DNA of 27,122 nt from NCBI GenBank assembly GCA_964602645.1, contig CAZRSD010000001.1, forward strand, positions 1 to 27,122, in the 5' to 3' direction. The notes under the pieces are model-generated. The model did no database searches. It saw only the letters and a list, made by a program, of their open reading frames with translations, and had not been told where the DNA came from. Numbering within the stretch: the stretch's first letter is position 1; each line of letters starts with the position of its first letter. Source of the DNA: an uncultured Myxococcales bacterium (GTDB lineage Bacteria; Myxococcota; UBA727; JABDBI01). This document shows positions 7 to 24,906 of this stretch, piece after piece. The position numbers and the translations under genes were made by a program.

Positions 7-1464
7 ATGAGCAGCGCCAATACCCTCATCGATCTCGATCGTGCTGTAATCAAAAAGGGCGGACTTAAAAAATTTATTGAACTGTCATGGCATCAAATCG
101 AGCCGGGTAAAACGTTTGTGGCTGGTTGGCACATTGATGCCATTTGTGAGCACCTAGAAGCTATTTCTAGGGGTGAACTAACCCGTCTCATAATCAACAT
201 CCCACCTGGTTGTATGAAGAGCCTCACAGCCTGCGTATTCTGGCCAGCGTGGGTGTGGACGTTTAAGCCAGAAACAAAATGGATCTACGCATCCTATTCG
301 ATGGCTTTGAGCCGAAGAGATAATCTCAGGATGCGCCGTCTCATCGAATCAGAATGGTATCGCACGCGCTTTGGTGATGCCTTTAGACCGCTCGACGACA
401 ACTGGGGCACGGCTAAGTTCGTGAACGACAGGGCAGGGTTTCGGCTCTGTACCTCGGTAGATGGCACGGTCACCGGTGAGCATGCAGACGTTCAAGTTTG
501 CGACGACCCCATCAAGCCGCAAGATGTTTCCAAGACGTCTTTAACCAACTGTTTGGAGTGGTGGAACGAGACCATGTCGAGCCGTCTCGTCGACTTCGAA
601 AAGTCAGCACGCGTCATCATTATGCAACGGCTTCATGTAAACGATTTAGCTGGCGAAATGCTGAGAAACGGTGGCTATGAGCATCTTTGCTTGCCGATGG
701 AGTTTGAAAGCCGCTTTGCTTGTAAGACTTCCATTGGCTTCATAGACCCGCGCAACAAAGAATATGATTTGCTGTGGCCGAAAAGGTGCTCAGCGGAATC
801 GGTGCGTGAAATCAAGAAGGGTATCGGCACTGAGCGAGGTATCTCGGCTCAGTTGCAACAGCATCCGGTGCCCCATTCAGGCGCCATATTTAAAAGTGAC
901 GCGATAAAGCACTATGTAACGCCACCGCGAATGCCGACGGTGATAACGAGCTGGGATTGCACCTTCAAAGAAACTGGCTCGTCCTATGTGGTTGGGCAGG
1001 TGTGGGGGGTTAGTGATGAGCATGAATACTATGTTTTGCTCGATCAAGTGCGTGCTCGAATGAGTTTTAGTGACACGCTCGAAGCGATAAGAAAATTCTC
1101 AGTTAAATATCCCCAAAGCTCAGCCCACATCATCGAAGAAAAGGCTAACGGCAGCGCCATCATCGATATGCTGCGTGATGAGATATCTTCCTTAAAACCC
1201 GTGTTACCGGAAGGCGGCAAAGAAGCTCGCGCACATGCGGTAGAAGGGCTTTGGAGTGCGGGCAGGGTGTTGTTACCAGATCCAACGATTGCCCCGTGGA
1301 TAAACGACTTCATTCAAGAGGTGTTGGAGTTTCCAAGTTCCATCAACGACGACCAAGTGGATGCTATGACGCAAGCGCTCACCTGGCTCAGGGAGCGCAC
1401 TTTGCGCATGAAGACGTTTTATAAATCCATGAACAACACGGGCAACATGTCATGTTTTCTCTAA
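7..1464 (+). CDS. terL: Terminase large subunit
   Basis: ATPase motifs IINIPPGCMKS (Walker A-like) and VQVCDDPIK (Walker B), coupling motif IIMQRLH, C-terminal nuclease motifs SWDCTFK and NDDQVDAMTQAL. Directly precedes the portal. Confidence 0.95.
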   Translation: MSSANTLIDLDRAVIKKGGLKKFIELSWHQIEPGKTFVAGWHIDAICEHLEAISRGELTRLIINIPPGCMKSLTACVFWPAWVWTFKPETKWIYASYSMALSRRDNLRMRRLIESEWYRTRFGDAFRPLDDNWGTAKFVNDRAGFRLCTSVDGTVTGEHADVQVCDDPIKPQDVSKTSLTNCLEWWNETMSSRLVDFEKSARVIIMQRLHVNDLAGEMLRNGGYEHLCLPMEFESRFACKTSIGFIDPRNKEYDLLWPKRCSAESVREIKKGIGTERGISAQLQQHPVPHSGAIFKSDAIKHYVTPPRMPTVITSWDCTFKETGSSYVVGQVWGVSDEHEYYVLLDQVRARMSFSDTLEAIRKFSVKYPQSSAHIIEEKANGSAIIDMLRDEISSLKPVLPEGGKEARAHAVEGLWSAGRVLLPDPTIAPWINDFIQEVLEFPSSINDDQVDAMTQALTWLRERTLRMKTFYKSMNNTGNMSCFL

Positions 1465-11795: not shown

Positions 11796-12186
11796 CGCTG
11801 TTTTTAAAATTTTGATTGTATCGTTGCCGCTGCTGATGGGCGGCTGCAAGCACATCGGTTTGCTCTTTGAGCCACCGGCAACGTTGAAGGCCGTGGTGCA
11901 AGGCGAGATCAAAGGCATGGCCATCCATTGCGAAAAGACCTTAACGCTTGGCAATGCTCGCTGGGAAGTGATGTGCAAAGTCAGCGACGAGATCGACATC
12001 AAATACCGCACCAAAGCCATTAACAATAATCAAACCAAGCTCGAAATTCTGATCGACAAGCAAAGCGGTGACGGCCAAAAAACAATTTTTGCGCCTATGG
12101 TCGTTGTGAGCAAAGACAAACCGTCAAGCACGGAAACGGTGAGTGATAAAGCTCGTATCGCCATTCGAACCGAGCCCATGCGATGA
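11782..12186 (+). CDS. Predicted lipoprotein of unknown function
   Basis: Signal peptide with lipobox (FKILIVSLPLLMGG|C); overlaps both neighbours. Confidence 0.6.
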   Translation: MPAASAVFKILIVSLPLLMGGCKHIGLLFEPPATLKAVVQGEIKGMAIHCEKTLTLGNARWEVMCKVSDEIDIKYRTKAINNNQTKLEILIDKQSGDGQKTIFAPMVVVSKDKPSSTETVSDKARIAIRTEPMR

Positions 12187-12824
12187 AGTCTTTAACCGAG
12201 GAAATAAAGCTCTTCTTTTCCGATAAGCAGTTTCGCATCGGAGAGCTCACCATTGATGCGGTAATAAAGGAAAGTCATGAGCTCCGGGCTCAGATAACTG
12301 AACATCCGACTGAGAATGGTGAGAGCTTTTGTGATCATGTGAGCAGCCTGCCTACCTCGGTCCAGCTCGAGGGTATTATTTCTAATACGCCGTTAACGCT
12401 CATTGGACTCACGGCAGTTACATCATTGACCAATTACATAACCGACCGGTCGAATAATATGGCAGAGCTTGCCTATAAGACGCTCGAGGACATCTTTGCG
12501 AAACGCACGCCTATTAGCATCTCCACTTCCCTCAAAGATTACGACAACATGGTGCTGGAAAGTCTCAGCGTTGAACGGGGGGGAGGTGCTACCGAGTCAC
12601 TTCGCTTTAGGGCAACGGCCAAGCAGGTACGCATTGCCCATCAAGCAACCATCGCAATTTCTCTTCCTGAGCCCAAACCAGAACGAGCCAAGCCGAAACA
12701 GCGCCTCGGTAAACAGGAGACCAAACCGGTTTCTGAACACACGCAAAAAACCGTGGAGACGGTAAAGAAGACCGTGACAGAAAAGCAGTCATTTTTGAGT
12801 TCGATATTTGGCTGGAGCAAATAG
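12183..12824 (+). CDS. Tail tube initiator / baseplate protein (Dit-like N-terminal domain)
   Basis: IDAVIKESHELRAQITEHPTENGESFCDHV...QLEGIISNTP; YDNMVLESLSVER. Confidence 0.8.
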   Translation: MKSLTEEIKLFFSDKQFRIGELTIDAVIKESHELRAQITEHPTENGESFCDHVSSLPTSVQLEGIISNTPLTLIGLTAVTSLTNYITDRSNNMAELAYKTLEDIFAKRTPISISTSLKDYDNMVLESLSVERGGGATESLRFRATAKQVRIAHQATIAISLPEPKPERAKPKQRLGKQETKPVSEHTQKTVETVKKTVTEKQSFLSSIFGWSK

Positions 12825-12825
12825 T

Positions 12826-13137
12826 ATGACGATCATAGAAATCCCCATCGCATCGTCTGCATCGCATTTTATGCAAGAGAACGATGTTTTTGGGCAGAAC
12901 TTCTTTCTAGAGTTCGAGTGGATTGAAAATGAGGGTTTTTGGTTATTGCATGTTGCCGATGAAAAAGGACGTCCTTTGGCTTCAGGTATTAAACTACAAC
13001 CCGAATGGCCGCTCTATGTTCACCATGACGCAAAGTTGCCGTTTGCATTTATGATGCTGTCTCGACTACCCGGACAATGCCTAGACCGCGCAACGTTAAA
13101 AAACCAATTTACTCTGGTGGCCTATGAAGTTGTTTGA
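12826..13137 (+). CDS. Small baseplate protein
   Basis: Start moved to ATG 12826. FFLEFEWIENEGFWLLHVADEKGRPLASGIKL; usual position before the hub gene. Confidence 0.7.
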   Translation: MTIIEIPIASSASHFMQENDVFGQNFFLEFEWIENEGFWLLHVADEKGRPLASGIKLQPEWPLYVHHDAKLPFAFMMLSRLPGQCLDRATLKNQFTLVAYEVV

Positions 13138-13921
13138 CCGCGTCGTTGAGTTAACGGTCGGAGACACACAAATCACCGGCCTCGATATCGCCTTTGAGAT
13201 CGAAAAAGACCTGAGTCCTGAGCCCAATCCATGCAGCATCGAGATTTTTAATTTGGGTGCAAAGAATAGGGCTATTCTTTCTCAATACGACCGCGTGCCG
13301 GTACTGCTTAAAGCCGGATATAAAGACCAGGTGGCGGTGATTTTTCAGGGCGACATGATCAGTTGCACCCATCTCAAAGAAGGTCCTGATTGGAAAACAG
13401 TGCTCGCAAATGGTGATGGCGCCAAAGCTATTCAGACAGCGCGCATCAATAAGAGTTTTTCCAAAGGGACACCAGTAAAAACGGTCATCAAAGAAATCGC
13501 TGAGCAATTGCGGATACCGAGCAGCGGTGCGTTAAAGCAGCTGGAAGTGCTTACGGACAAGTTGGGACGCGGTTTTGTAGCGAGCGGAAGCCCCATGGAT
13601 GAGCTTTGTCGCATTCTTCGACAGTATGGTTATAGCGCATCCGTGCAAGACAACAATCTCCAGGTGCTCAAGCAATGGCAGGCTTTGGATAAACAGGCTA
13701 TCAACTTAACCGCTGATTCCGGCCTTAAAGGAACGCCGGAAGTTGGTAGCGACAAAAAAATTCAGATTCAGGCGGTACTCATGCCTGAGCTCATGCCAGG
13801 ACAAATGGCGCATATCGAATCGGCGGTATTCAAGGGATTTGCCACCATAGAAAGCGTGCGATTTGAAGGAGCTAATTTTGGCGACGTGTGGGGAATGGTT
13901 GTATCCGCCATAGCTTGTTAA
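13124..13921 (+). CDS. Baseplate hub protein (gpD/gp27-like)
   Basis: LDIAFEIEK...PNPCSIEIFNL, VLLKAGY...IFQGD, LTADSGLKGTPE pattern. Confidence 0.82.
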   Translation: MKLFDRVVELTVGDTQITGLDIAFEIEKDLSPEPNPCSIEIFNLGAKNRAILSQYDRVPVLLKAGYKDQVAVIFQGDMISCTHLKEGPDWKTVLANGDGAKAIQTARINKSFSKGTPVKTVIKEIAEQLRIPSSGALKQLEVLTDKLGRGFVASGSPMDELCRILRQYGYSASVQDNNLQVLKQWQALDKQAINLTADSGLKGTPEVGSDKKIQIQAVLMPELMPGQMAHIESAVFKGFATIESVRFEGANFGDVWGMVVSAIAC

Positions 13922-14469
13922 CGATCAAAAAGCTCTTTCTCCTCTTTGATATAAAAGTGGTCTGGGTGCCAATCGCTTTCCTCTAACACTTCTTCAAGAT
14001 TGCGTTCGACTCTCTTTCCTTTAAATTTTTCTAACAGGTCTTCGAATCCAGGAAGACCTCCGCAGTCTTCAGGGGGAAATGCCTTTTTCCCATCTATAAG
14101 GCGGCGCTCAAATTGATCGTCGCTTGTCACAAATTTGCACACTATCTCACAGCACCAGTTGTCACCAAAATCATACACATATTCACACGTGTTTACTTTA
14201 TCAAAATAGTCTTTTAGTTCAACAGATTGCGCGGTTGGGATTCCTTCATTAATCATGTCGTCATCAATCCGAGCATCTTGCGCTATGGCTTTCGAGGTCC
14301 ATGCGTCACCGGCAAAAAATGAAAAAAGATGGCTATCATACCAACCGCATGCATCCTGAATCGCTTCATGTAAATCTAAAAATGTTGCTGTTGGATTCAG
14401 TTGGAATTTTCGCCAAACCTTGGGCTTCGCATCTTTGAGAGTGACAGTGAATTCAAAATACTGGGGCAT
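13918..14469 (-). CDS. pRiA4b ORF-3 family (MM3350-like) protein
   Basis: VWRKFQL...TFLDLHEAIQDACGWYDSHLFSF, YVYDFGDNW, GKKAFPPEDCGGLPGF. ATG 14469 has a GAAGG RBS; the ORF track starts at TTG 14514. Confidence 0.88.
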   Translation of the reverse strand: MPQYFEFTVTLKDAKPKVWRKFQLNPTATFLDLHEAIQDACGWYDSHLFSFFAGDAWTSKAIAQDARIDDDMINEGIPTAQSVELKDYFDKVNTCEYVYDFGDNWCCEIVCKFVTSDDQFERRLIDGKKAFPPEDCGGLPGFEDLLEKFKGKRVERNLEEVLEESDWHPDHFYIKEEKELFDR

Positions 14470-14510
14470 CAGACTAACCTTCGTTCTTAATTTCTCCCAA
14501 ATAAAGAATA

Positions 14511-14756
14511 TCAATCAGGCCTGATTTGAGAAGCCGGCTTCAAGAGCGCCATCAATGCCGCATCCTTTTCCGCTCTTCTTTTCTTTCTGTCCTCTTCCTT
14601 CGCCGTTTTTCTTTGGTCTTGAAAGGCTCGGTACTTGGCCTTGCGGGCCTCTTTCACTTTTTCTTTCAACGCCTGATATTTTGGATCGGCGTCTCGCTTA
14701 GCCTTGGCTTTTTGATAGGCATCTTTTCTTTTTTGACGCAGCTCTTCTTTGTCCAT
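14511..14756 (-). CDS. Small Lys/Arg/Glu-rich helical protein of unknown function
   Basis: 81 aa, highly charged; upstream of and co-oriented with the pRiA4b ORF-3 gene; candidate promoter TTGAAG-N17-TAATTT just upstream. Confidence 0.6.
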   Translation of the reverse strand: MDKEELRQKRKDAYQKAKAKRDADPKYQALKEKVKEARKAKYRAFQDQRKTAKEEDRKKRRAEKDAALMALLKPASQIRPD

Positions 14757-14760
14757 CGGA

Positions 14761-14811
14761 AAATTAGAACCTCACATTTTTGGCTTCAATCCACACTGTA
14801 AGCCCTATGAT
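14761..14811 (+). promoter_or_regulatory. Putative late promoter, copy 2
   Basis: AAAttaGAAcCTCAcATtttTGGCTTCAATC-N14-TATGAT, with ATG 7 nt after the -10. Same layout as 4291-4341. Confidence 0.6.
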
Positions 14812-14818
14812 GGTTATT

Positions 14819-15478
14819 ATGGAACAAACACCTACATTAGCTCGTCTGATAAAGCTTGCAATCGATAATCGGTTGCTCGATGTGCATACGGCATTGATTG
14901 CGGTCGTTGAAAGTTATGACGCAGAAAAACAGCAGGTCAACGTAACCCCGGTCCTAAAGCGTTGCCTTCGGAGTTTGTCCGGTGATTGGGTCAATGAAGA
15001 GTTACCCAAGATTTGTGATGTGCCCGTTCTCTTCCCGCGTGCCGGCGGATTTTTCATCTCCTTCCCAATTCAGCCCGGAGATTTTGTTCAGTTGCTATTC
15101 AACGAAGTCAGCATTGATGATTGGCTTAACGATGCGCCTTCTACGACGGCCCACGATGAACGATTCAGCCTGCAGGGGGCAGTAGCCATTCCCGGCGTTT
15201 ATCCTTCAACCAAAACCATCACAGGCGCCCATAAAACGAATTTGGTCTTAGGGCAGGAACAAGGCCCGCAAATTCATATCGACGGCGAAAAAATCAGGAT
15301 GGGCTCCGACAAGGCAAATGAAGCTTTGGCTATTGCGAGCAAAGTAAAAGAAGAGCTCGACCGAATCAAATCGGCATTTAATAAGCACAGCCACGTGAGT
15401 TCTTCCGGTCCTATTAAGCCAACGGATAGAATCATTGCTTCGTCCGACATTGCCACTAAAAAGGTGGTCGCCCAATGA
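14819..15478 (+). CDS. Baseplate central spike (gpV / Gp138-like)
   Basis: VHTALIAVVESYD, DVPVLFPRAGGFFISFPIQPGD, C-terminal HSH metal-binding tip motif. Likely start ATG 14819 (MEQTP). Confidence 0.88.
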   Translation: MEQTPTLARLIKLAIDNRLLDVHTALIAVVESYDAEKQQVNVTPVLKRCLRSLSGDWVNEELPKICDVPVLFPRAGGFFISFPIQPGDFVQLLFNEVSIDDWLNDAPSTTAHDERFSLQGAVAIPGVYPSTKTITGAHKTNLVLGQEQGPQIHIDGEKIRMGSDKANEALAIASKVKEELDRIKSAFNKHSHVSSSGPIKPTDRIIASSDIATKKVVAQ

Positions 15479-15837
15479 TGGATTTTTCAATCAACAACCG
15501 CGATCTAGAAATCGCTCAAGGCGACTTCTTATTGTGCGCCACTGATACCGACGCAGTCGCTCAAGCGTTATCGATTCGCCTAAAAACGTTTGCCGGCGAA
15601 TGGTTTTTGGATACCAGAGTGGGCATACCCTATCTCACCGACATCCTGGGCAAGAAGATCAACGAACGCCTGCTGCGTAAGACGGTGACCGAAGAAGTTA
15701 AGAGCTTGCTCGGTATCAGCGATATAAGAGACTTCGCGGTTGAGGCAGGTCGAACCGCTCGAAGCATTTACCTCCGTTTTAGTGCCACTTTGCCTAACCA
15801 CACCACCATCACCGTCAATGAATCAATCGAGGTATAG
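15475..15837 (+). CDS. Baseplate sheath initiator (gpW/gp25-like)
   Basis: AVAQALSIRLKTFAGEWFLDTRVGIPYL motif. Confidence 0.85.
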   Translation: MMDFSINNRDLEIAQGDFLLCATDTDAVAQALSIRLKTFAGEWFLDTRVGIPYLTDILGKKINERLLRKTVTEEVKSLLGISDIRDFAVEAGRTARSIYLRFSATLPNHTTITVNESIEV

Positions 15838-16989
15838 ATGAACGATTGGGGATTAACGATCGCAGGCTTTCGGCCGAAGACATTTCACGCCATCAAAGAG
15901 GAACTTGAATCAGCCTTAAGAAGCGCCGTAGATAAGGATCTGCGCTTCACTCCCGATACAATTGCAGGACAAATCACTGGCATCATTGCCAATCAAACCC
16001 GCCAAGTATGGGAGATGGCTGCAGGTCTCTATGCATCTCTAGATAGCAATACCGCGTCTGGTCGAGCATTAGATGCGCTTTGTGCTCTCAGCGGAACCTA
16101 TAGAAAGCAAGCTGCACCAAGCCGCGCGGTGATTCAGGCAACACTCGCAGCCGGTGCAAAGCTTCCCAAAGGCATCATCATAGCTGATGAGAGCAACACC
16201 AATGCGCGCTTCAAAATCGAGAAAGAAGTCGAAAACGATACGAATGAACAAAAATCTCTTTCAGTTGAAGTTGTAGCCGAAGAAAATGGTCCTATTTATG
16301 TTGAAGCAGGCAGATTGACCAAGATCGTAACTCCTCATGCCGGCCTCGTTGCAGTCAACAATCCCGAAGACGCCATTCCAGGCTGCCTTATTGAATCCGA
16401 TGCGGAGCTGCGCATACGCCGCTTGCAGGAGCTTGGTGCTCCAGGGTCATCGACGCAGGGAGCAATGACAGCACGTCTTTTAAAGGTAAAGGGCGTAGAG
16501 GCAGTACACATCGAAGAGCAAGACCAGGGCTTTTGTGCATTTGTTTTAGGCGGCGACGACCAAGAAATTGCAGAAACCATCTGGCAGCACAAAGCGCTTG
16601 GTGTCCATACGCATGGCCTAATCACGCGAGAAGTAAAAGCCTCAAATGGACAACTCAAGACTATTAAGTTTGATCGGCCAAAACCCATTGAGATTTCATT
16701 GCATCTCAACCTTAGGGTAAAGCAGTCTTTGAGCAATCACGAGCTTGCCGAGCTCAAAGACGCCATTGTCAAATATTGCAAAGACAAATTTAGTTTTGGC
16801 CACGTGCCATACACAGCTCAGATTTATCCCGTGCTCTTTGCTCATGAGAAAATCCTCGACGTCATGTCAATTCAGTTTAGACGCAACGGAAACACTGACG
16901 ACGTTCCTCGCGTGGTTAATCCACATGAAGTATTAACGATCGCTCAACCGGATATTCATATTGAGCAAGTTCTTGAGGATCGGCCGTGA
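15838..16989 (+). CDS. Baseplate wedge protein J / gp47 family
   Basis: TASGRALDALCALSGTYRKQA, ESDAELRIRR, RLLKVKGV, VLGGDDQEIAETIW motifs. Confidence 0.92.
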   Translation: MNDWGLTIAGFRPKTFHAIKEELESALRSAVDKDLRFTPDTIAGQITGIIANQTRQVWEMAAGLYASLDSNTASGRALDALCALSGTYRKQAAPSRAVIQATLAAGAKLPKGIIIADESNTNARFKIEKEVENDTNEQKSLSVEVVAEENGPIYVEAGRLTKIVTPHAGLVAVNNPEDAIPGCLIESDAELRIRRLQELGAPGSSTQGAMTARLLKVKGVEAVHIEEQDQGFCAFVLGGDDQEIAETIWQHKALGVHTHGLITREVKASNGQLKTIKFDRPKPIEISLHLNLRVKQSLSNHELAELKDAIVKYCKDKFSFGHVPYTAQIYPVLFAHEKILDVMSIQFRRNGNTDDVPRVVNPHEVLTIAQPDIHIEQVLEDRP

Positions 16990-17528
16990 AAATAGTCGAA
17001 GAAGCCGAATCGCTGATGCTCTATCAGTTCAAAGATGCACCAAAACTAAAGGGGTTGTTGTGCTCTTTGATCCAGCCCCTGCAAGTAATCGCTGATGGCG
17101 TCGAGCACTTTAGCCACGGGGTGCACATCGATGAAGTATCTGGGCACTGGCTCGATGTTTTGGGTGGCATCGTAGGACAATCGCGTTCAGGCATGAGCGA
17201 CAAAGATTTTAGAACATGGCTCAAAATCCGCGTCATGCTCAACCGCTGTAACGGAACGCCTGAAGAATTGCTCAGCATCATCAAACTTCTCTTGGGATCG
17301 GATTACCCGCTGACATTGGCAGAGCATAAACCAAAGGACATAGTAATGGTGTTCCTCGCGCCCATGAGAATACCGTCTCCGACGGTATTCTCTTTAATCA
17401 GAAATGCATCACCGCTTGGCCTTCGGCATCACTTCGTCAATGCATCCGTAAACAGTCCATTTCAACTCGACAAAAGCGCATTTTCATCAGCTCAGTTTGC
17501 TGAGTTTTTCCATAGGGGTAAAACATGA
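16986..17528 (+). CDS. Baseplate wedge protein, DUF2612 / gpI-like
   Basis: LMLYQFKDAPKLKGLL, GHWLDVLGGIVGQSR, DKDFRTWLKIRV. Confidence 0.82.
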   Translation: MKIVEEAESLMLYQFKDAPKLKGLLCSLIQPLQVIADGVEHFSHGVHIDEVSGHWLDVLGGIVGQSRSGMSDKDFRTWLKIRVMLNRCNGTPEELLSIIKLLLGSDYPLTLAEHKPKDIVMVFLAPMRIPSPTVFSLIRNASPLGLRHHFVNASVNSPFQLDKSAFSSAQFAEFFHRGKT

Positions 17529-17932
17529 GTGCATTCAAATGGGCCCATGGCCCAGAGGCAAATGTTAAAGAACCAATTGAGGCTCTGAAAGAAAATGGCT
17601 GGCAGGCGGGTGACGTACCGACGGCTTCTAATTTCAACTGGCTTTTTTACGAGATTGGCTACGATCTACAGCAAAAATCGACGAACCTCGAACAAATCCA
17701 TGGCCAGCTCAATGGGTTGACCGTTCAACTTTCACAGCTTCAGCAAAAGACGCAACAGCTTACTGAAACTCTAGCTACCGTGAAGGCTATCACCGACCAA
17801 AATGCCATTGACTCTGGTCACTATAAACGCGCAATCGCCGCGTGTATTCGTGTTCTCAACGGCGCAAATGGTGAACGGCTAGGACTCGATACTGGAGTAC
17901 GAAATGATTACCCATTCCCCAATAAGAGATAG
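17525..17932 (+). CDS. Very short tail-fibre-like protein
   Basis: Fibre attachment motif W...VKEP...KENGWQAGDVPTASNFNWL followed by a Leu heptad coiled coil; occupies the fibre gene position. Confidence 0.65.
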   Translation: MSAFKWAHGPEANVKEPIEALKENGWQAGDVPTASNFNWLFYEIGYDLQQKSTNLEQIHGQLNGLTVQLSQLQQKTQQLTETLATVKAITDQNAIDSGHYKRAIAACIRVLNGANGERLGLDTGVRNDYPFPNKR

Positions 17933-17938
17933 CCATGG

Positions 17939-18265
17939 TCAACTTGATGCTGCCTTCTTTAGAGTTTCACGCACCCAAACATTCATGCTTTTATGCGCTC
18001 GCATAGCAGCCAGGAAAAACAATTGATGTTCTTCAGGGGTAGCTCTAACGGGAAAATTGCCGGAAAAAGGGCGTTCAGGCTCTTCGCCGCGTTCCTTACA
18101 AAAGGCCAAGTAATCATCGATCGAATCTTTAAACGCCTTTTTGAGCTCCCTAACGCTTTTTCCTTGGAAGGTAATGACGTCCTTAAGGTTGGCCACTTCC
18201 CCGTGAAAAATTTCTGCCTCATCATCAAATTCAACGTTCGCAACGTACTCCTTATATTTCATCAT
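17939..18265 (-). CDS. hicB: HicB antitoxin
   Basis: MKYKEYVANVEFDDEAEIFHGEV...DVITFQG...FKDSIDDYLAFC...PERPFSGNFPVR, with C-terminal RHH. Confidence 0.93.
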   Translation of the reverse strand: MMKYKEYVANVEFDDEAEIFHGEVANLKDVITFQGKSVRELKKAFKDSIDDYLAFCKERGEEPERPFSGNFPVRATPEEHQLFFLAAMRAHKSMNVWVRETLKKAASS

Positions 18266-18516
18266 TTGCTGACTCCTGCTGCTTCTAGAAATCGTCGCAT
18301 CGACGCTAATGCACCCTTATCCGTTTCTTTTTGTGGATGCGGTCGATGAAACACCGCCCTGACACCATTAAGAGCAATCCGCACCCTAGAGCCATTGCCC
18401 TCAGATATTTCCGCACCAAGGGATCTTAAGAGATGCTCAATATCTTTCCATGGCACATCAGCCCTTGTGGGCTTTGCAAAAATGGATTCAAGGGTCTTTT
18501 GATGCTTCTTCTGCAT
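18262..18516 (-). CDS. hicA: HicA toxin (mRNA interferase)
   Basis: TLESIFAKP...WKDIEHLLRSLG...GNGSRVR...VFHRPHPQKETDKGA. Confidence 0.93.
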   Translation of the reverse strand: MQKKHQKTLESIFAKPTRADVPWKDIEHLLRSLGAEISEGNGSRVRIALNGVRAVFHRPHPQKETDKGALASMRRFLEAAGVSK

Positions 18517-18522
18517 CAGGTC

Positions 18523-18551
18523 ATGATATCAAAATATGATATCATATGCAA
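18523..18551 (-). promoter_or_regulatory. hicAB promoter with inverted-repeat operator
   Basis: Minus strand TTGCAT-N17-TATCAT, with the -10 ending 6 nt before the hicA ATG. Perfect inverted repeat ATGATATCA-aaata-TGATATCAT (18523-18545). Confidence 0.75.
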
Positions 18552-18711
18552 TCCGAAGAACATGAAAGAAATTATTAACAAAATTTCGGCGACTTATAGC
18601 GACATCAAACAAGACCAACGTGAGGGAATATTTTGACATCAAACCCAGGTTCTAACTAGACAAGTTAAATTTTCACCGAACAAGTCACCTATCGTCCCTG
18701 AGAGGATTTGG

Positions 18712-21429
18712 ATGAACTATATCGATCTGCTCATCGTAATCGTCTATCTATTGGTGACACTTGCAGCAGGTCTAGTGTTCGGCAGAAAAACCTGCACCAT
18801 TGAAGACTACGCGATCGGTCGTCGAGAATTTTCGAATTCGGTATTAGCAGCTGCAATTTGCGCCACCATGATTTCAGCAAGCGGCACATCCGGGCTCACA
18901 GGAAAAATTTACTCATTTGGCGCCATTTTTGTTGCTTCTTATTTTGGCGTCGTGGTCGCTAGATTATTAGTAGCTTTTGTCGTCGCGCCAAAAATGAATC
19001 CGTTCTTAGGCATGATTTCCTGTGGCGATGTTCTCGAAAAATTATATGGCCGTGAAGCCAAAATAATGATGGGACTCCTCACCCTCTTAGAAGGCTCATT
19101 GCTTGCAGGCGCCCAAGTGCTCGCTACTTACCAAGCTGGCCAATATTTTTTTGGTTTTTCTAAAGAGATCGGCGCGATCACCACGTCGGGGATCATCATT
19201 CTTTATTGCTTCAGAGGAGGCATCAGAGCGATCACCGCCACCGACGTATTCCAGTTTGTCATGATGGTTGTCGCGATCCCTATCGTTGCAGCAATTGCCA
19301 TTGAACATATTGGCGGCTTTTCAACCTTTGTAACCGCCTTAGAAGAGCGCCGTCTGCTCACAGATTCTTTGACACATGGCGACGCGCTCAAGCATATCAC
19401 TATATTCGTGTCATTGGCCTTAACCTGCGTCATCCCGCTCACGGTACAACGCATGCTCATGGCTAAAAATACCGAGCAAATTAGAAAATCCTATCTACTG
19501 AGCGGCCTCATCACTTTTCTCTTCTACTGCGCAATAGGCATCGTGGGACTCGCAGCACCGCTATTGTTGCCCAACATCGACCCTAATCTATCATTACCTG
19601 CTTTGATCAACGAGCTGCTGCCCATTGGGATTCGTGGTCTCGTCATCGCAGGGCTGCTTTCGATATTCATGTCCAGCTCAGATGCTGACATGAATATCAG
19701 CTCAGTTGCATTAACACACGACATTCTAAAACCATTGTTCCGCGAGAAATTCAACGACAAATTATTGTTCTTCTTTACCAGGCTCACCTTCGTGATCGGC
19801 GGGATAATCTCTACCATTGTCGCGCTCTACTATTCCAACGCGCTCGACATCCTCTTCCTCGTCATGGTGATATGTAATTCGGTTTATTTCCCCGGTCTTT
19901 TTCTGGGCATTCTTGGCCTTAGAGCAACGACAAGAGGTTTTTGGAGTGGCGCTATTATGGGGGCAACAATAGCGCTAGTGCTTTGCCTTATATTCAAAGT
20001 GTTTCCTCTCTACGCCATGATGATAGCGATAGCCGCCAATTCTTCGGTGCTGGTGTTATCTCACGTACGTCGATCGAGCACATCACTACCCTCATTCCTT
20101 AAACTCACCCAGCTCCTTTTGGGTTGGATGAAAAATTTATTATCCCATCAAAATACATTTTTTGAGCTCAAGAAAAGCAGCTTTGCCGTTAGTGGCGTCG
20201 GATATAATGATGTCTTTTCTACGCTGGTGCTCATAAATTCCGTGTTCCCATTTTTCTTTAAAGCTCTCGATTTCACCCCATTGCCGCTGAGCCTACTGAT
20301 TTGCAATGTCATCTCTGGAGTCATGGCTTCACTAATCTTATTAAGACAGGCCTTAGGAGCCTATAAATTTCTCATGCCGATTTTTTGGCAGTTGATGACG
20401 CTGACGTCACTCTCGCTGCAGACTGTCATGCTCTTATCCTATAGTGGTTTTGATGCTGTGTGGATTCTGGATCTTGCCGTCGTAGTCGCTCTCTTAATGA
20501 CGATATCGAGAAAACAAGAATTGGTAATTCATGCAATCGCTGCAGCCATCATGGTGCCGGTACTTATTCATCTGGCGCCGTATTCACCGAATTTGGATTT
20601 GAATAGCTACCAATATTGGTCCTTCTTTCTACACGCTGCAGCGTTGGTCATTTGTCTCAAGATTTTTAGAAATCGAGATATCGCAGCCTACCGCTTCATG
20701 ACGGGCAAGTTTGCCCATGAAACAAGTCGATCGATGACGTCATATTCAACATCGGCGCATGTATTAAACAAATATTTACCTGATCTAATTGAAGCTTATA
20801 AAAGCAATAACAATAATGCGAGGAACATTTCACGTGACGACCTGGTAAACATTTCCAACATCCCCAAGCAACTATTGGAGACCAGTGCCCGCACATGGAA
20901 AAACCTAAAGGGCTTGCTTAGCTGGATGGAATTGGAATTCGACGAGCCTCAGGCAGAAACTTATTCCATCAAAGACACCATCAATTCCGCGATAAATGAC
21001 AACTCAATCTCTCCAGATTTCAGGAAAAAAATTCACATAAAAGATTCAGTAGATTTTTATTACTTTGGTGACAACACTCAAATCACCCAAGTGATAATAA
21101 ACATGCTTGAAAATGCCATGCATGCGATGAATAAAAACCCAAAAGCACAAGTAACTATATGGACTTCAGGACACAGCCTTTTCATAGAAGACAATGGTCA
21201 CGGAATCGAAAAGAACGACCTACCAAGAATATTTGATGACCTTTTCTCAACCAAAGGAACAACCGGACAGGGTTTGGCTTTCTCTAAGCTGGTGATGGAA
21301 AAACATCATGGAGATATCTCGTGTGATTCTAAGAAAGGCCATTTCACCAGATTTGCATTAAATTTCCCCGACATTTCCGACAGAACCAGAGGTCTTGAAC
21401 ATGCAGTCAACGGCTCCCGCATTCTTTAA
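18712..21429 (+). CDS. Hybrid sensor: sodium:solute symporter (SLC5/PutP-like) + CqsS/LqsS-like 6-TM domain + histidine kinase
   Basis: SSS motifs EDYAIGRR, ATMISA, GGIRAITATDVFQF, SIFMSSSD (about aa 1-450); second hydrophobic block (about aa 495-655); H-box FAHET (His669), N-box QVIINMLENA, G1 IEDNGHGI, F-box IFDDLFSTK, G2 GQGLAFSK. Confidence 0.9.
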   Translation: MNYIDLLIVIVYLLVTLAAGLVFGRKTCTIEDYAIGRREFSNSVLAAAICATMISASGTSGLTGKIYSFGAIFVASYFGVVVARLLVAFVVAPKMNPFLGMISCGDVLEKLYGREAKIMMGLLTLLEGSLLAGAQVLATYQAGQYFFGFSKEIGAITTSGIIILYCFRGGIRAITATDVFQFVMMVVAIPIVAAIAIEHIGGFSTFVTALEERRLLTDSLTHGDALKHITIFVSLALTCVIPLTVQRMLMAKNTEQIRKSYLLSGLITFLFYCAIGIVGLAAPLLLPNIDPNLSLPALINELLPIGIRGLVIAGLLSIFMSSSDADMNISSVALTHDILKPLFREKFNDKLLFFFTRLTFVIGGIISTIVALYYSNALDILFLVMVICNSVYFPGLFLGILGLRATTRGFWSGAIMGATIALVLCLIFKVFPLYAMMIAIAANSSVLVLSHVRRSSTSLPSFLKLTQLLLGWMKNLLSHQNTFFELKKSSFAVSGVGYNDVFSTLVLINSVFPFFFKALDFTPLPLSLLICNVISGVMASLILLRQALGAYKFLMPIFWQLMTLTSLSLQTVMLLSYSGFDAVWILDLAVVVALLMTISRKQELVIHAIAAAIMVPVLIHLAPYSPNLDLNSYQYWSFFLHAAALVICLKIFRNRDIAAYRFMTGKFAHETSRSMTSYSTSAHVLNKYLPDLIEAYKSNNNNARNISRDDLVNISNIPKQLLETSARTWKNLKGLLSWMELEFDEPQAETYSIKDTINSAINDNSISPDFRKKIHIKDSVDFYYFGDNTQITQVIINMLENAMHAMNKNPKAQVTIWTSGHSLFIEDNGHGIEKNDLPRIFDDLFSTKGTTGQGLAFSKLVMEKHHGDISCDSKKGHFTRFALNFPDISDRTRGLEHAVNGSRIL

Positions 21430-22285
21430 ACCAACAACGATATTGCTCGTTGATGATGACGAACGCTACATAAAAAACATTGCAACCTTGATCGCTCATC
21501 GTTGCAAGCCCGTTGTTGTTACGCCTAATGATTTGGACAAATATCGCTGTTCAGAGCTCTTCACCGTGCTCGAGACATTTTCGAAGAACAACCAATCGTT
21601 ATCCATAACCTCAGTGATGAATTTTTTTTCAACGCATAGAAACTCATGGCCGGTATCAACGATAGTGATTGATTACGATATGGCACCGAAAGACGGCCTG
21701 AGTATTCTCAGAGAATTTAAGAGCTCATTTATTCAGAAAATTCTTATCTCAAATTTTTTGCAAGAAGAAATATCTCGCGACGCCATTAATCAAGGCGTGA
21801 TTGACTTTTATCTACCAAAAATGGACCCTCTTTTTATCGACAAATTAGCGGAAACAGTCGCGATGGCCCAGCACCGGTTTTTCTACAAACTGTCGGCTAT
21901 CGTGCCCGATTTCTTTTCTCATGATAATCCACTCCGCGAACCACAGCTGTACAAGGTTTTTAAAACCATCCAGTCGGAATATGACGCTGAATACTATGAA
22001 TCGCACGACCATCTCAGGCGTTTCACGTTCTTTAATGGCAACGGCAGCGCAAAGGCAACGCTTCACATCTGGCCAGAAGCCCATATTGATGAGTTGGTTC
22101 ACAGCATCCCGGCTGAGTCAGCACCACAAGAAGTGCGTGAACTCATCCTCTCAGGTAAGACGATGCCCATATTTGTCGACGATATGATTCCTGACGGTAA
22201 GGAATGGCACAAGTATCTGCAACCAGCAAATTTACTCAACGGTAGTAAAAAATACGTCTATTCGATTTGTGGAGCTGAGCTATGA
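21401..22285 (+). CDS. LqsR-like response regulator (receiver with insertion plus non-HTH output domain)
   Basis: FFKPTTILLVDDD, long insertion, STIVIDYDMAPKDG (phospho-Asp), QKILIS, AINQGVIDFYLPK, and C-terminal GKTMPIF...WHKYLQPAN...KYVYS parallel my recollection of Legionella LqsR. RBS AGAGG before ATG 21401. Confidence 0.8.
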   Translation: MQSTAPAFFKPTTILLVDDDERYIKNIATLIAHRCKPVVVTPNDLDKYRCSELFTVLETFSKNNQSLSITSVMNFFSTHRNSWPVSTIVIDYDMAPKDGLSILREFKSSFIQKILISNFLQEEISRDAINQGVIDFYLPKMDPLFIDKLAETVAMAQHRFFYKLSAIVPDFFSHDNPLREPQLYKVFKTIQSEYDAEYYESHDHLRRFTFFNGNGSAKATLHIWPEAHIDELVHSIPAESAPQEVRELILSGKTMPIFVDDMIPDGKEWHKYLQPANLLNGSKKYVYSICGAEL

Positions 22286-23025
22286 ACTTCGAGAGCGCCT
22301 ATAAGGGAATCAAACCAAGCGAGATCGACAATGACACACCGGAAATCGCAGACAGATACTTAAATCGAAAGCCAAGTGGCACAGGATATTTGGCCTATCG
22401 CGATATACCGATGCTCATTCAAAAATATGTAAAAGGCGAACGAGCGTTAGATTTCGGCTGTGGAACTGGCTACTCCACGCGCCTTATAAGGGAAATGAAT
22501 TTTGACGTCGTTGGCGTCGACATTAGTTTAAATATGCTTTTGCGCGCGCTTTCGATCAAAGATGGCATCCCATTTGCTCATATCAAACATGGCGAAATAA
22601 ATGCCAAGGATAATTCATTCGATTTTGTCCATTCATCCTTAGTTTTCTTCGACATGCCAACGATTCATATGGTAAGAGAAGCACAACTAGAAATTAGCCG
22701 CATACTCAAACCCGGCGGAATCTTTATCGCCGTCGTCGGCAGTGAAAACCTGCACCTTAACAATTGGTTGACCGTGACGACCGATGTTGCTCGGAACAAG
22801 ACAATAAAATCGGGTGAAGTGTATAGGCTCGATACTCCCCATGCTGGCCTCTACTTCTACGACTATTACTATTCCGACGACGATTACCGAACGACATTCG
22901 ATCAGGTTGGTCTAGAACTCTTGGAAACCCACTACCCACTTGGCCGAGACTCAGATGGATTTCCATGGCAAACCGAAAAGTCGGTGTCAGCGCAAACCAT
23001 TTATATCTGCAGAAAACGCCACTAA
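22282..23025 (+). CDS. Class I SAM-dependent methyltransferase (small-molecule type)
   Basis: Motif I ALDFGCGTG, VVGVDISLNML, FDFV, ILKPGGIF; no DNA-MTase DPPY/NPPY or PC motif; ATGA-coupled to the response regulator. Confidence 0.9.
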   Translation: MNFESAYKGIKPSEIDNDTPEIADRYLNRKPSGTGYLAYRDIPMLIQKYVKGERALDFGCGTGYSTRLIREMNFDVVGVDISLNMLLRALSIKDGIPFAHIKHGEINAKDNSFDFVHSSLVFFDMPTIHMVREAQLEISRILKPGGIFIAVVGSENLHLNNWLTVTTDVARNKTIKSGEVYRLDTPHAGLYFYDYYYSDDDYRTTFDQVGLELLETHYPLGRDSDGFPWQTEKSVSAQTIYICRKRH

Positions 23026-23642
23026 GCTCGTCGATGCCAGATGATCTTTGCTATGGTGGGCGATACAATTCGCTCTAAATCGGTCGATGCATTCGATCTG
23101 GCAAACACGTTGTCGTCGTAAAAGTGCAGCCATCTCGGTGCAAATTTTCCCGAAGAAAGCTTGATCATAAATAAGTTTGCCCCATCGTGCGTGCCTTCCT
23201 TGCATATGCTGTCAAACAGAACCATGGTTCCCAAGACCAAATCACCACGACCGAATAGCGGCGTCATAGCGTTGTCCTCGATCTCGACGGTTATCGGATT
23301 ACCATTGGTCTTTTGGCAGGATTTTATGAAATGGTCGATGATGTCATCGAAGTGTTTCACGTTGCATGCGTCTTGCAAATTGAAAGTTGGCCCGGTCCCC
23401 ATCCCAAATATCAACCAATCATGATTAATAAAAACACCGTCTCTGCAAAACGACTCGACGAGCTTTGCGCAACCTTCGCTTCTGGGCACTACGCCAAGTT
23501 CCCAAGTTTTGAGAGATTGCAACGATATTTCATGTCGTCTACAGAATTCTTCCTGGTTTAGTCCCGATAAAACTCGACAGGCTTTGATTCGCTGCCCTAT
23601 CTTCTTGCCATCAAACTTAGCTATTTCATTAGACTCGATCAT
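23022..23642 (-). CDS. CI-like repressor: XRE HTH plus degenerate S24-like domain
   Basis: IGQRIKACRVLSGLNQEEFCRRHEISLQSLKTWELG, DWLIFGMG linker, EIEDNAMTPLFGRGDLVLG. ATG 23642 has a GAGG RBS; the ORF track starts at TTG 23678. Confidence 0.8.
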   Translation of the reverse strand: MIESNEIAKFDGKKIGQRIKACRVLSGLNQEEFCRRHEISLQSLKTWELGVVPRSEGCAKLVESFCRDGVFINHDWLIFGMGTGPTFNLQDACNVKHFDDIIDHFIKSCQKTNGNPITVEIEDNAMTPLFGRGDLVLGTMVLFDSICKEGTHDGANLFMIKLSSGKFAPRWLHFYDDNVFARSNASTDLERIVSPTIAKIIWHRRA

Positions 23643-23712
23643 CTCGTTCCCTCGGTAACTCGTTTTCTTGGTTCTCAAAATTCTTTGATGATTTTTTATA
23701 GTTCACGCTGGA

Positions 23713-23763
23713 CATAAACCATAAGTTCATCTAAAAATTTTATCATAAACTACCGATTCATCT
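23713..23763. promoter_or_regulatory. Two 17-bp pseudo-palindromic operators in the divergent switch region
   Basis: ATAAACcataaGTTCAT (23714-23730) and ATAAACtaccgATTCAT (23745-23761); also direct repeats CATAAAC-N6-TTCATCT spaced 31 bp apart. Confidence 0.65.
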
Positions 23764-23799
23764 TAAACTGTAAATGTCGGGTGTCGATTATTCCAGTTT

Positions 23800-24906
23800 T
23801 TGATTAAGTCTCGGTCGAAAAATTGGGAACCCATCTTGTCTAATAAATGGATATTGAGCGCTACCGAAATCGAAACATTCGAATTATGTCGAAGGAAGTG
23901 GGCCTACCAATATCTTGATGAGATCAAAACACCTCCATCGAAAGCCGCAAGGTTTGGTTCGGCAGTACACAGTTTTTTACAGAATCATCTTACTGGTAAT
24001 GCGATTGACTATCAAACCGCCGAAGGCCGAGTAATTTTTCCTGGCCTTGGTTTTTTACCAAAACGCCTAGCACATGAAAATGTTGAGCGTCCAATCTTTT
24101 TTTCTAAGCATGGTCTCATGTTTCGCGGCTACATTGATTTTGTGGAGCAGATCGATGCAACAACCTTTTTGATCGGTGACCACAAAACTGCTTCAAATCT
24201 CAGGTATGCTCTCGCTATTCATGAACTCAAGAAAAATACGCAAGCGAACATCTACGCGCAGTGGGCATTTACAGAAAGAGCAGCTGAGTTGGTGAAACTG
24301 AGATGGGTTTATTATCGAACATCTTCTTCGCCGAAAGCCATGAGCGTCGATACCGAGCTTTCAAAAAGTGAAGCAGAAGAAAATTTTCTCAATATCGCCG
24401 ATACCGGAAATAAGATTCTCGCCATCGTAAAAGATGGCCCTCCTTCTATCAAACAACCTAGAAATAGCGCCGCCTGCTTTAAATATGGTCGATGTCATTT
24501 CTTTGATCGGTGTAGCGGCGAGGCAAGAACAACATTCACGAAGAAAAATAAATTAGAGGAGGCCCTTATGAAGCAGATTGATCATGATGTTAAGGACAAG
24601 TCATTTCATCTCTACATAGATTGTATGCCCACGAAAAATGAAGCTGCGTACGAGCGTACCATCGAGCTCTCAGAATTATTGAAACCAGTATTAACCAAAA
24701 TTCAAACAGAAAAGGAGTTGAGCCATTATCGGTTGGCGGGCTACGGGCAGCACGTCGGGCTGATCGCCAATTATCTATCCGAGCATTTGAAGAGCAACGC
24801 TTACAAAAGCGATACCGCGATTTTAAGCAGCGTAAAAACACCCGAAGGATGTGACACCCTTCAAACCCTGACAGCCGCAGCTGGACAAGTGGTGAGAGGC
24901 TTCTAA
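23800..24906 (+). CDS. PD-(D/E)XK (RecB/Cas4-like) exonuclease with Fe-S cysteines and an extra C-terminal domain
   Basis: LSATEIETFELCRRKW, FGSAVH, RGYIDFV...IGDHKT, QANIYA, CFKYGRCHFFDRC. The TTG start is uncertain. Confidence 0.87.
   Translation: MIKSRSKNWEPILSNKWILSATEIETFELCRRKWAYQYLDEIKTPPSKAARFGSAVHSFLQNHLTGNAIDYQTAEGRVIFPGLGFLPKRLAHENVERPIFFSKHGLMFRGYIDFVEQIDATTFLIGDHKTASNLRYALAIHELKKNTQANIYAQWAFTERAAELVKLRWVYYRTSSSPKAMSVDTELSKSEAEENFLNIADTGNKILAIVKDGPPSIKQPRNSAACFKYGRCHFFDRCSGEARTTFTKKNKLEEALMKQIDHDVKDKSFHLYIDCMPTKNEAAYERTIELSELLKPVLTKIQTEKELSHYRLAGYGQHVGLIANYLSEHLKSNAYKSDTAILSSVKTPEGCDTLQTLTAAAGQVVRGF

Follow-up and report, generated by a model that had tools for sequence, protein, structure and literature searches.

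The stretch of DNA analysed here (the window, 27,122 nt) is the start of a 35,417-nt contig, of which it makes up 77%, and in binning the contig was assigned to a metagenome-assembled genome (MAG; 2.04 Mb, 363 contigs) of an uncultured myxococcal bacterium. The contig is probably a circular temperate myophage. At positions 18712–23025 the window holds three plus-strand genes, which encode a sensor histidine kinase of 905 aa (18712..21429), a LqsR-family response regulator of 294 aa (21401..22285) and a class I S-adenosylmethionine (SAM)-dependent methyltransferase of 247 aa (22282..23025). Convergent with the last of these, on the minus strand, is a gene for a CI/LexA-shaped repressor (23022..23678, likely start ATG 23642). 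We call the four genes the cassette; the trio on the plus strand lies between the tail module with a HicAB pair on the left and the repressor/early-promoter region on the right.

The three plus-strand genes overlap and appear translationally coupled, as a sequence-only reading of this DNA had described them. For the regulator gene the most probable start is ATG 21401, which has AGAGG 8 nt upstream (an alternative TTG is at 21395); the gene shares 29 nt with the kinase gene. The methyltransferase ATG at 22282 lies inside the ATGA that ends the regulator gene and is preceded by GGAG at 7 nt, while its TAA (23023–25) overlaps the TAG (23022–24) of the convergent repressor gene. Upstream of the trio, an intergenic leader on the plus strand (18517..18711) carries GAGGA 6 nt 5′ of ATG 18712 and a TTGACA hexamer at 18634. 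The motifs GAGGA, AGAGG and GGAG ahead of the three starts all resemble Shine-Dalgarno sequences. All catalytic and phospho-acceptor motifs of the trio are intact. The arrangement exceeds chance, and the tight gene order repeats in independent contigs.

The N-terminal part of the kinase is an SSF/SLC5-type sodium/solute symporter (aa 1–450, nt 18712–20061; PF00474, E 3e-33, aa 33–417), to which solved SLC5 transporters are the nearest structures by sequence match. It is followed by six more transmembrane helices (aa ~495–655, nt 20194–20676), a dimerization and histidine phosphotransfer (DHp) domain with His670 (nt 20719–20721) in the H-box FAHETSRS, and a catalytic and ATP-binding (CA) domain at aa ~785–890 (HATPase_c, PF02518, E 3e-18, aa 786–886). 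The H, N, G1, F and G2 boxes and the FMSSxDS transporter motif are conserved. Pfam matches to STAC, PAS or HisKA were absent both from the full-length protein and from aa 455–700 searched separately; the latter region matched no Pfam family at all, and hydropathy resolves this linker into the six hydrophobic helices. A word-based protein search with the kinase half returned generic kinase-core matches only. Among phage orthologues the symporter part is best conserved (50–60% identity) and the six-helix block least (16–32%). In cellular loci (L053/L054, described below, and contig C112) a symporter of 472–477 aa and a six-helix kinase of 439–447 aa are encoded by separate adjacent genes. More generally, the kinase half occurs as a separate gene of 431–447 aa in cellular or degraded loci, and one degraded prophage has the kinase half alone. 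Because the cellular relatives carry symporter and kinase separately, the phage gene is a fusion, whose product is predicted to be a single protein with 19 transmembrane helices. The view of the sensor as a plain Lqs/Cqs receptor was thus not upheld. A similar design is known from the SLC5/STAC kinases CbrA, CrbS and RpuS, histidine kinases that likewise carry a fused sodium/solute symporter domain at the N-terminus (‘transceptors’). In contrast to these, the phage kinase has six extra transmembrane helices instead of STAC and PAS domains, and its partner is of LqsR type rather than an NtrC- or LuxR-type DNA binder; the CbrA family, moreover, regulates carbon metabolism in free-living proteobacteria.

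The regulator consists of a receiver domain and an LqsR-type output domain; no other Pfam domain and no DNA-binding domain was found in it. Alone it matched PDB entry 6sy9 with E 3.9e-14, and a profile of 12 regulator homologues did so with E 9.4e-61 over both domains (positions 2–288 against residues 24–331). The database labels 6sy9 only ‘Response regulator’; we take it to be LqsR of Legionella pneumophila. Residues D20, D21, D93 and K142 are invariant in the 12 homologues, and the counterpart of D93 in the alignment with 6sy9 is the Asp of its VVVDY motif. The related genomes encode up to 18 LqsR-like proteins each, and three genomes of the host family (G018, G013 and G010; 1.4–2.2 Mb) show expansions with 18, 14 and 10 matches, respectively. 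The output domain of the LqsR/PhcX family has a degenerate GGDEF-like fold without a known mechanism or output route (PMC10653808).

The likeness to the Lqs system of L. pneumophila (LqsA-LqsR-HdeD-LqsS, plus LqsT) therefore extends, on the regulator side, over both domains, the aligned phospho-acceptor Asp and the lack of a DNA-binding domain. On the kinase side it would be one of layout, with six transmembrane helices leading directly into DHp and CA domains as known for LqsS and CqsS. The sequence-only reading had proposed, as one option, that the phage eavesdrops on a signal of its host or of a neighbour, and both points would fit alpha-hydroxyketones of the LAI-1/CAI-1 type as that signal. 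We consider this very unlikely, because the whole host lineage runs many such kinase/regulator pairs without a synthase. A gene for a pyridoxal phosphate (PLP)-dependent synthase is missing from the window, as had been stated, and also from the rest of the contig, on which PLP-dependent enzymes of any kind are lacking. The host genome was likewise checked for lqsA/cqsA, and none was found: the best match of the MAG to the CqsA/LqsA model NF005526 reached 121 bits against a cut-off of 428 and fell on a split BioF/Kbl-family gene, present as two partial pieces at contig ends, that scores higher as BioF. Across the 38 genomes of the class (the MAG and 37 others) no CqsA/LqsA scored above the cut-off, even where up to 18 LqsR-like genes are present. 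The kinase is also always tied to a symporter, and its six-helix block is hypervariable between phages, which again speaks against such eavesdropping. The PF00155 matches of the host were considered as synthase candidates and rejected, all being ordinary aminotransferases, BioF, GlyA, MetB-type, SufS-type or GcvP proteins. Elsewhere in the phylum, four genomes of 10–12 Mb (G263, G337, G240 and G269; loci L062–L065) encode CqsA/LqsA-type synthases above the NCBIfam cut-off (515–530 bits); in the two of these loci that were examined, in G263 and G269, no kinase or regulator like those of the window was found within 7 kb. Beyond the absent synthase, the phage module differs from Lqs in its symporter-linked kinase, its dyad-less CI-like regulator and its place at a phage immunity locus.

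The third gene had been called a small-molecule-type SAM methyltransferase, an assignment with which the modelled fold agrees. The protein matched Pfam families Methyltransf_11, 25 and 23 (E 7e-17) as well as 31 and 12, and its SAM motifs are invariant, while the cap region of the enzyme is variable. Its AlphaFold2 model (pLDDT 91.6) found its best full-length structural matches in ToxA (TM-score 0.74–0.76) and the N-demethylindolmycin N-methyltransferase (TM-score 0.78/0.81), which suggests a fold like that of natural-product N-methyltransferases. PhcB was absent among the top 30 Swiss-Prot structural matches of the model. In a tree of 124 family members, the cassette enzymes fell in one clade of 11 (SH-aLRT 99), which contained all seven known cassette enzymes.

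The repressor has an N-terminal helix-turn-helix (HTH) domain that matches the 434 and P22 repressors and a modelled C-terminal domain that resembles those of LexA and lambda CI (TM-scores normalized by target 0.55–0.68; for LexA 0.67, r.m.s.d. 3.6); a homologue on contig C90 matched PF00717. It thus shares with LexA, lambda CI and UmuD the S24-like beta C-domain, and with phage repressors the HTH and the genomic position. Unlike these proteins, the window repressor has DNAM where GDSM is expected. Among 13 homologues the Lys position is occupied by P or R in every case and the Ser position by A, E, T or S, with S in only 4, and there is an invariant C-terminal W-H motif. Since the Ser-Lys dyad is incomplete in all 13, RecA-stimulated self-cleavage is not expected. 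Two direct repeats of 24 nt (CATAAAC..TTCATCT.AAA), at 23713–23736 and 23744–23767 and thus 31 nt apart, occupy the intergenic stretch that separates the repressor gene from the early operon; they are the only two matches in the window, where none would be expected, and are candidate operators. No Cro-like small open reading frame was evident in this intergenic stretch.

The block of tail genes, kinase, regulator, methyltransferase, convergent repressor and exonuclease was found repeatedly: a minimum of eight phage contigs carry it, which are diverged and come from independent metagenomes. Its carriers include a second phage in the same MAG (contigs C151 and C72), a contig of a related genome (G004:C139), an NCBI metagenome contig and three Logan contigs (L044–47), an ENA scaffold (L048), an NCBI MAG contig (L051), a Logan contig from SRR14005100 and L060. 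The trio is therefore a real and conserved unit. The sequence-only reading had named absence of co-occurrence as a ground for refutation, but the methyltransferase does co-occur with these kinase/regulator pairs elsewhere, in at least eight cassettes and as one clade; the ATGA-type overlap of regulator and methyltransferase genes is repeated in most of the other cassettes. Identity to the window copy is 40–51% for the kinase, 28–44% for the regulator, 36–60% for the methyltransferase, 35–47% for the repressor and 58–65% for the exonuclease. Exonuclease identities among the phages (55–68%) are uncorrelated with those of the cassette. The pairwise identities of the four cassette proteins correlated with one another (Spearman rho 0.70–0.92), whereas against the exonuclease rho was only −0.39 to 0.25; these values come from six phages and non-independent pairs, with heavy weight on one close pair. 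L044 and C151/C72 are 74–81% identical in the cassette and 63% in the exonuclease. Taken together, the mutual correlation and the high cassette against low exonuclease identity indicate that the four genes move as one mosaic module. In the closest pair all four are under purifying selection (dN/dS 0.07–0.13; methyltransferase 0.13). When positions 12823–21793 of the window were compared with a relative in a 2025 sequencing run, the kinase/regulator region was ~98–99% identical and the baseplate region ~91%, which again points to mosaic exchange in the surroundings of the cassette.

The position occupied by the methyltransferase gene is nonetheless open to exchange. In one prophage (L035; contig C17 of G004) it is taken by a GNAT acetyltransferase gene (11823–12614, plus strand), which runs towards the repressor gene and has 42 nt in common with it; the kinase gene of this prophage is inverted relative to the regulator gene. 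Elsewhere (C18; L037 of genome G012; L043 of G020; L061) the core of kinase, regulator and repressor has no enzyme gene. The enzyme is accordingly a conserved cassette member and yet dispensable for the core circuit, with its slot filled once by a GNAT protein and empty in others. On contig C173 of G000 (L020), a PNP_UDP_1 gene of the methylthioadenosine/S-adenosylhomocysteine (MTA-SAH) nucleosidase-like (Pfs-like) type (331–1035, plus strand) is separated by 3 nt from the start of a paralogous symporter-kinase gene, and downstream of the latter comes a gene for an LqsR-like regulator. It is another SAM-cycle-related enzyme beside such a module.

Is the enzyme part of the pathway at all? It could be a passenger that serves detoxification, anti-defence or the methylation of proteins or nucleic acids, as its generic, widespread family and its optional presence would allow. 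The enzyme also gave a weak match to the methyltransferase domain of MADS mad2 (E 3e-16; positions 267–428 of 492), but this was the only part to match; the candidate was rejected as a generic hit, other MADS genes are not present, and PADLOC left kinase, regulator and repressor unmatched. A passenger would not readily account for the ATGA coupling to the regulator gene and its retention in most other cassettes, for the monophyly of the cassette enzymes or for the fact that a different group transferase for small molecules can take over the slot, and the modelled fold is like that of natural-product N-methyltransferases, not of DNA or RNA methyltransferases. We thus rate a role unrelated to signalling as distinctly improbable.

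The opposite possibility, one form of the private channel that the sequence-only reading had proposed, is that the enzyme makes the signal. The methyltransferase or GNAT enzyme might produce a diffusible ester or amide from a host metabolite, to be sensed by the cognate kinase of sister prophages, as an enzymatic counterpart of arbitrium with swappable chemistry. Such a private channel would agree with the co-inheritance of enzyme and kinase, the swapping of enzyme type between cassettes, the variability of the six-helix sensor block and of the enzyme cap region, and the GNAT fold of LuxI-type synthases. Its precedent is the Phc system of Ralstonia and Cupriavidus, in which phcX, of the LqsR family, adjoins phcBSRQ and the SAM methyltransferase PhcB is the quorum signal synthase (PMC10653808). 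The likeness is one of gene arrangement: in both, an LqsR-family regulator gene lies beside a sensor kinase and a SAM methyltransferase gene, without LqsA (PMC10653808). Phc differs in being chromosomal and in having PhcR and PhcQ and a LysR-type output (PhcA), while the phage module has the symporter fusion and the CI-like repressor. Set against a private channel are the enzyme-less cassettes, the lack of an evident export function and the conserved symporter domain, which suggests a common transported solute instead of a private signal; together the enzyme-less cassettes and the conserved transporter domain imply that a synthase is not required. On balance we think it unlikely that the cassette works in this way.

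Relatives of the cassette in cellular genomes bear on where it came from and on what the repressor does in it. In L053 and L054 (ENA ERZ27237625 and JGI 3300004276), next to genes for DsbB, COQ7 and an intimin-like protein, a cellular operon encodes an HTH regulator 31% identical to the phage repressor, a symporter of 477 aa, a six-helix kinase of 447 aa and an LqsR-like regulator of 343 aa. This operon is the unfused, ancestor-type arrangement. The phage cassette derives from a cellular four-part system made up of a dyad-less XRE/S24-like regulator, a symporter, a six-helix kinase and an LqsR-type regulator. This four-part system is common in the host lineage, and the phage version adds the fusion and the enzyme gene. 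Of 20 repressor-family genes in the related genomes, 12 have an LqsR-like gene no more than 4 kb away and 4–5 others are at contig ends, and orphan regulator–repressor pairs occur in the host chromosome (C90, G001 and G004:C58). The repressor is the fourth integral part of the cassette and the best clue to the process under control.

A host-serving role must be weighed at this point. The kinase and regulator could be a lysogenic-conversion gene set (moron) that acts in nutrient sensing or uptake control for the host, in the manner of CbrA or CrbS, with the repressor regulated independently. The module stems from the host, whose chromosome has many paralogues of it, its position after the tail genes and beside a toxin-antitoxin pair is typical of morons, and known SSF-fused kinases regulate metabolism (PMC7096432, PMC9100948). 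The repressor, however, co-varies with kinase, regulator and enzyme and not with the neighbouring early gene, and its homologues accompany LqsR-type regulators in non-phage loci too, for which reason a repressor-type protein looks like a part of the pathway. We therefore think the moron explanation unlikely.

Instead, we tentatively favour a reading whose chances we put slightly below even: that a chemical cue, acting through the kinase–regulator–repressor cassette rather than SOS, biases the choice of the phage between lysis and lysogeny. The transporter-like kinase would bind or carry a small solute and set the phosphorylation of the regulator at Asp93. The regulator, having no DNA-binding domain, may then act on or with the adjacent CI-like repressor, which would not be removable by RecA-stimulated self-cleavage. 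Control would depend on the cue and be independent of SOS because the regulator is proposed to act via a repressor incapable of cleaving itself, and the cue could bias either the balance of lysogeny maintenance and induction or the choice made when the phage infects. The methyltransferase, whose slot a GNAT enzyme fills in a sister cassette, may act on the small-molecule ligand by making, converting or quenching it.

Several observations weigh against this reading. Promoter and terminator scans gave chance-level results, and a promoter of the trio's own is for that reason only presumed; a search for the candidate operator repeat upstream of the trio found none. Most of the 10–18 LqsR-like paralogues per genome have no adjoining repressor gene. 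A single complex prediction lent no support to regulator–repressor contact (0.01, 0.43 and 0.00 against a mark of 0.32), a result that counts neither for nor against binding. The wider methyltransferase family is spread over many phyla and unrelated contexts, the enzyme-less cores mean that the enzyme may be a mere passenger, and the identity correlations have the narrow base given above.

Phage sensing at the lysis–lysogeny decision has precedents in the arbitrium peptide system AimR/AimP, in VqmA-Phi of vibriophage VP882, in LuxR-type receptors and in the agr genes of the Clostridioides phage phiCDHM1. With these the cassette would share a phage receptor at or near the lysogeny control region and a logic of induction independent of DNA damage, here proposed from position and co-inheritance; phiCDHM1 illustrates that phages can carry a quorum-type histidine kinase. 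It differs from them in that the window holds a full two-component pathway with a 19-transmembrane-helix kinase, an LqsR-type regulator, a tailoring enzyme and a co-inherited repressor. In a literature search we found no description of an LqsR-type pathway on a phage. To speak of a new signalling system, for which the first description named the trio as a candidate, overstates the case, as Phc already pairs an LqsR-type regulator with a methyltransferase synthase (PMC10653808); what stands is the phage-borne cassette at the immunity locus. That cassette is what is new, whereas phage sensing at the lysogeny switch and Lqs/Phc-like signalling were already known.

The cassette is bounded on the left by the HicB/HicA toxin-antitoxin pair (17939..18516, minus strand; phrog_9151 HicB-like antitoxin, E 2e-37; phrog_8887 toxin, E 6e-26), which separates it from the late (tail) operon, and the left neighbour varies among related phages. 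On the right it is bounded by the first early gene, encoding a PD-(D/E)XK exonuclease (23800..24906, plus strand; PF12705, E 1e-15). The only tail-fibre-like gene of the window (17525–17932; 135 aa) is followed directly by HicB, and its product matches the fibre proteins of relatives (154–281 aa) over the first ~40 residues only.

The contig ends share a 16-nt direct repeat, and the small terminase subunit (TerS) gene lies at the end and the large subunit (TerL) gene at the start, for which reasons the contig is probably a complete circular assembly. Its virion genes are of myovirus type (terminase, portal, Mu-F-like head protein, protease/scaffold, major head protein, sheath, tape measure and baseplate). 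Besides HicAB, the CI-like repressor and the exonuclease, it encodes RuvC-like proteins, ParA/ParB, a primase/helicase and a tyrosine recombinase (integrase); the part that reaches beyond the window (27001–35417) holds genes for ParB, the primase/helicase, a 602-aa protein without assignment, the tyrosine recombinase and TerS. In GC content the MAG (50.0%) and the phage contig (46.4%) differ, with a tetranucleotide correlation of 0.83. Related prophages are integrated in large contigs of same-family genomes, for example an 854-kb contig of G012, and paralogues of kinase, regulator and repressor are present in the MAG chromosome; on these grounds the host assignment holds at family level. By GTDB placement the host is probably a small-genome member of the Myxococcota, a phylum in which many genomes measure 10–12 Mb.

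Seventeen further contigs of the MAG, among them C72 and C151, are fragments of several distinct related phages. Their structural proteins are 36–95% identical to those of the window contig, which indicates that several relatives coexist in the sample or bin. Near-identical sequence was seen in wastewater, activated-sludge and freshwater metagenomes from many studies. Searches of phage GenBank records and IMG/VR found no close relatives, and a scan of JGI metagenomes matched one short contig. One metatranscriptome contained exact pieces of the kinase gene (19066–19537) and of the sheath and baseplate genes, as contigs only, from which transcription in lysogens cannot be judged.

Should cue-dependent control of the repressor be right, lysogeny would be controlled without SOS by a novel design, a complete membrane two-component pathway with a transporter-like sensor, a swappable enzyme and a co-inherited repressor. 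The phage decision systems described so far rely on peptides (arbitrium) or on one-component receptors in the cytoplasm (VqmA-Phi and the LuxR types). The hosts of the phages concerned belong to a little-known bacterial lineage with small genomes. If the moron explanation were correct instead, the cassette would still be a clear case in which a phage transfers an entire signalling pathway of its host. A more far-reaching version of cue-dependent control, which we consider improbable as a whole, is that these are exchangeable ‘chemical immunity cassettes’, in which a tailoring enzyme, either a methyl- or an acetyltransferase, makes a cassette-specific small molecule from a host metabolite, the hypervariable six-helix kinase reads it and the regulator signals directly to the non-cleavable repressor. 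If true, they would be an enzyme-based, non-peptide analogue of arbitrium and would reveal the output partner of the LqsR family. For the route by which the LqsR/PhcX family reaches gene expression (PMC10653808), the dyad-less CI-shaped DNA binder, genetically tied to the regulator in phage and cellular relatives alike, is a concrete candidate partner.

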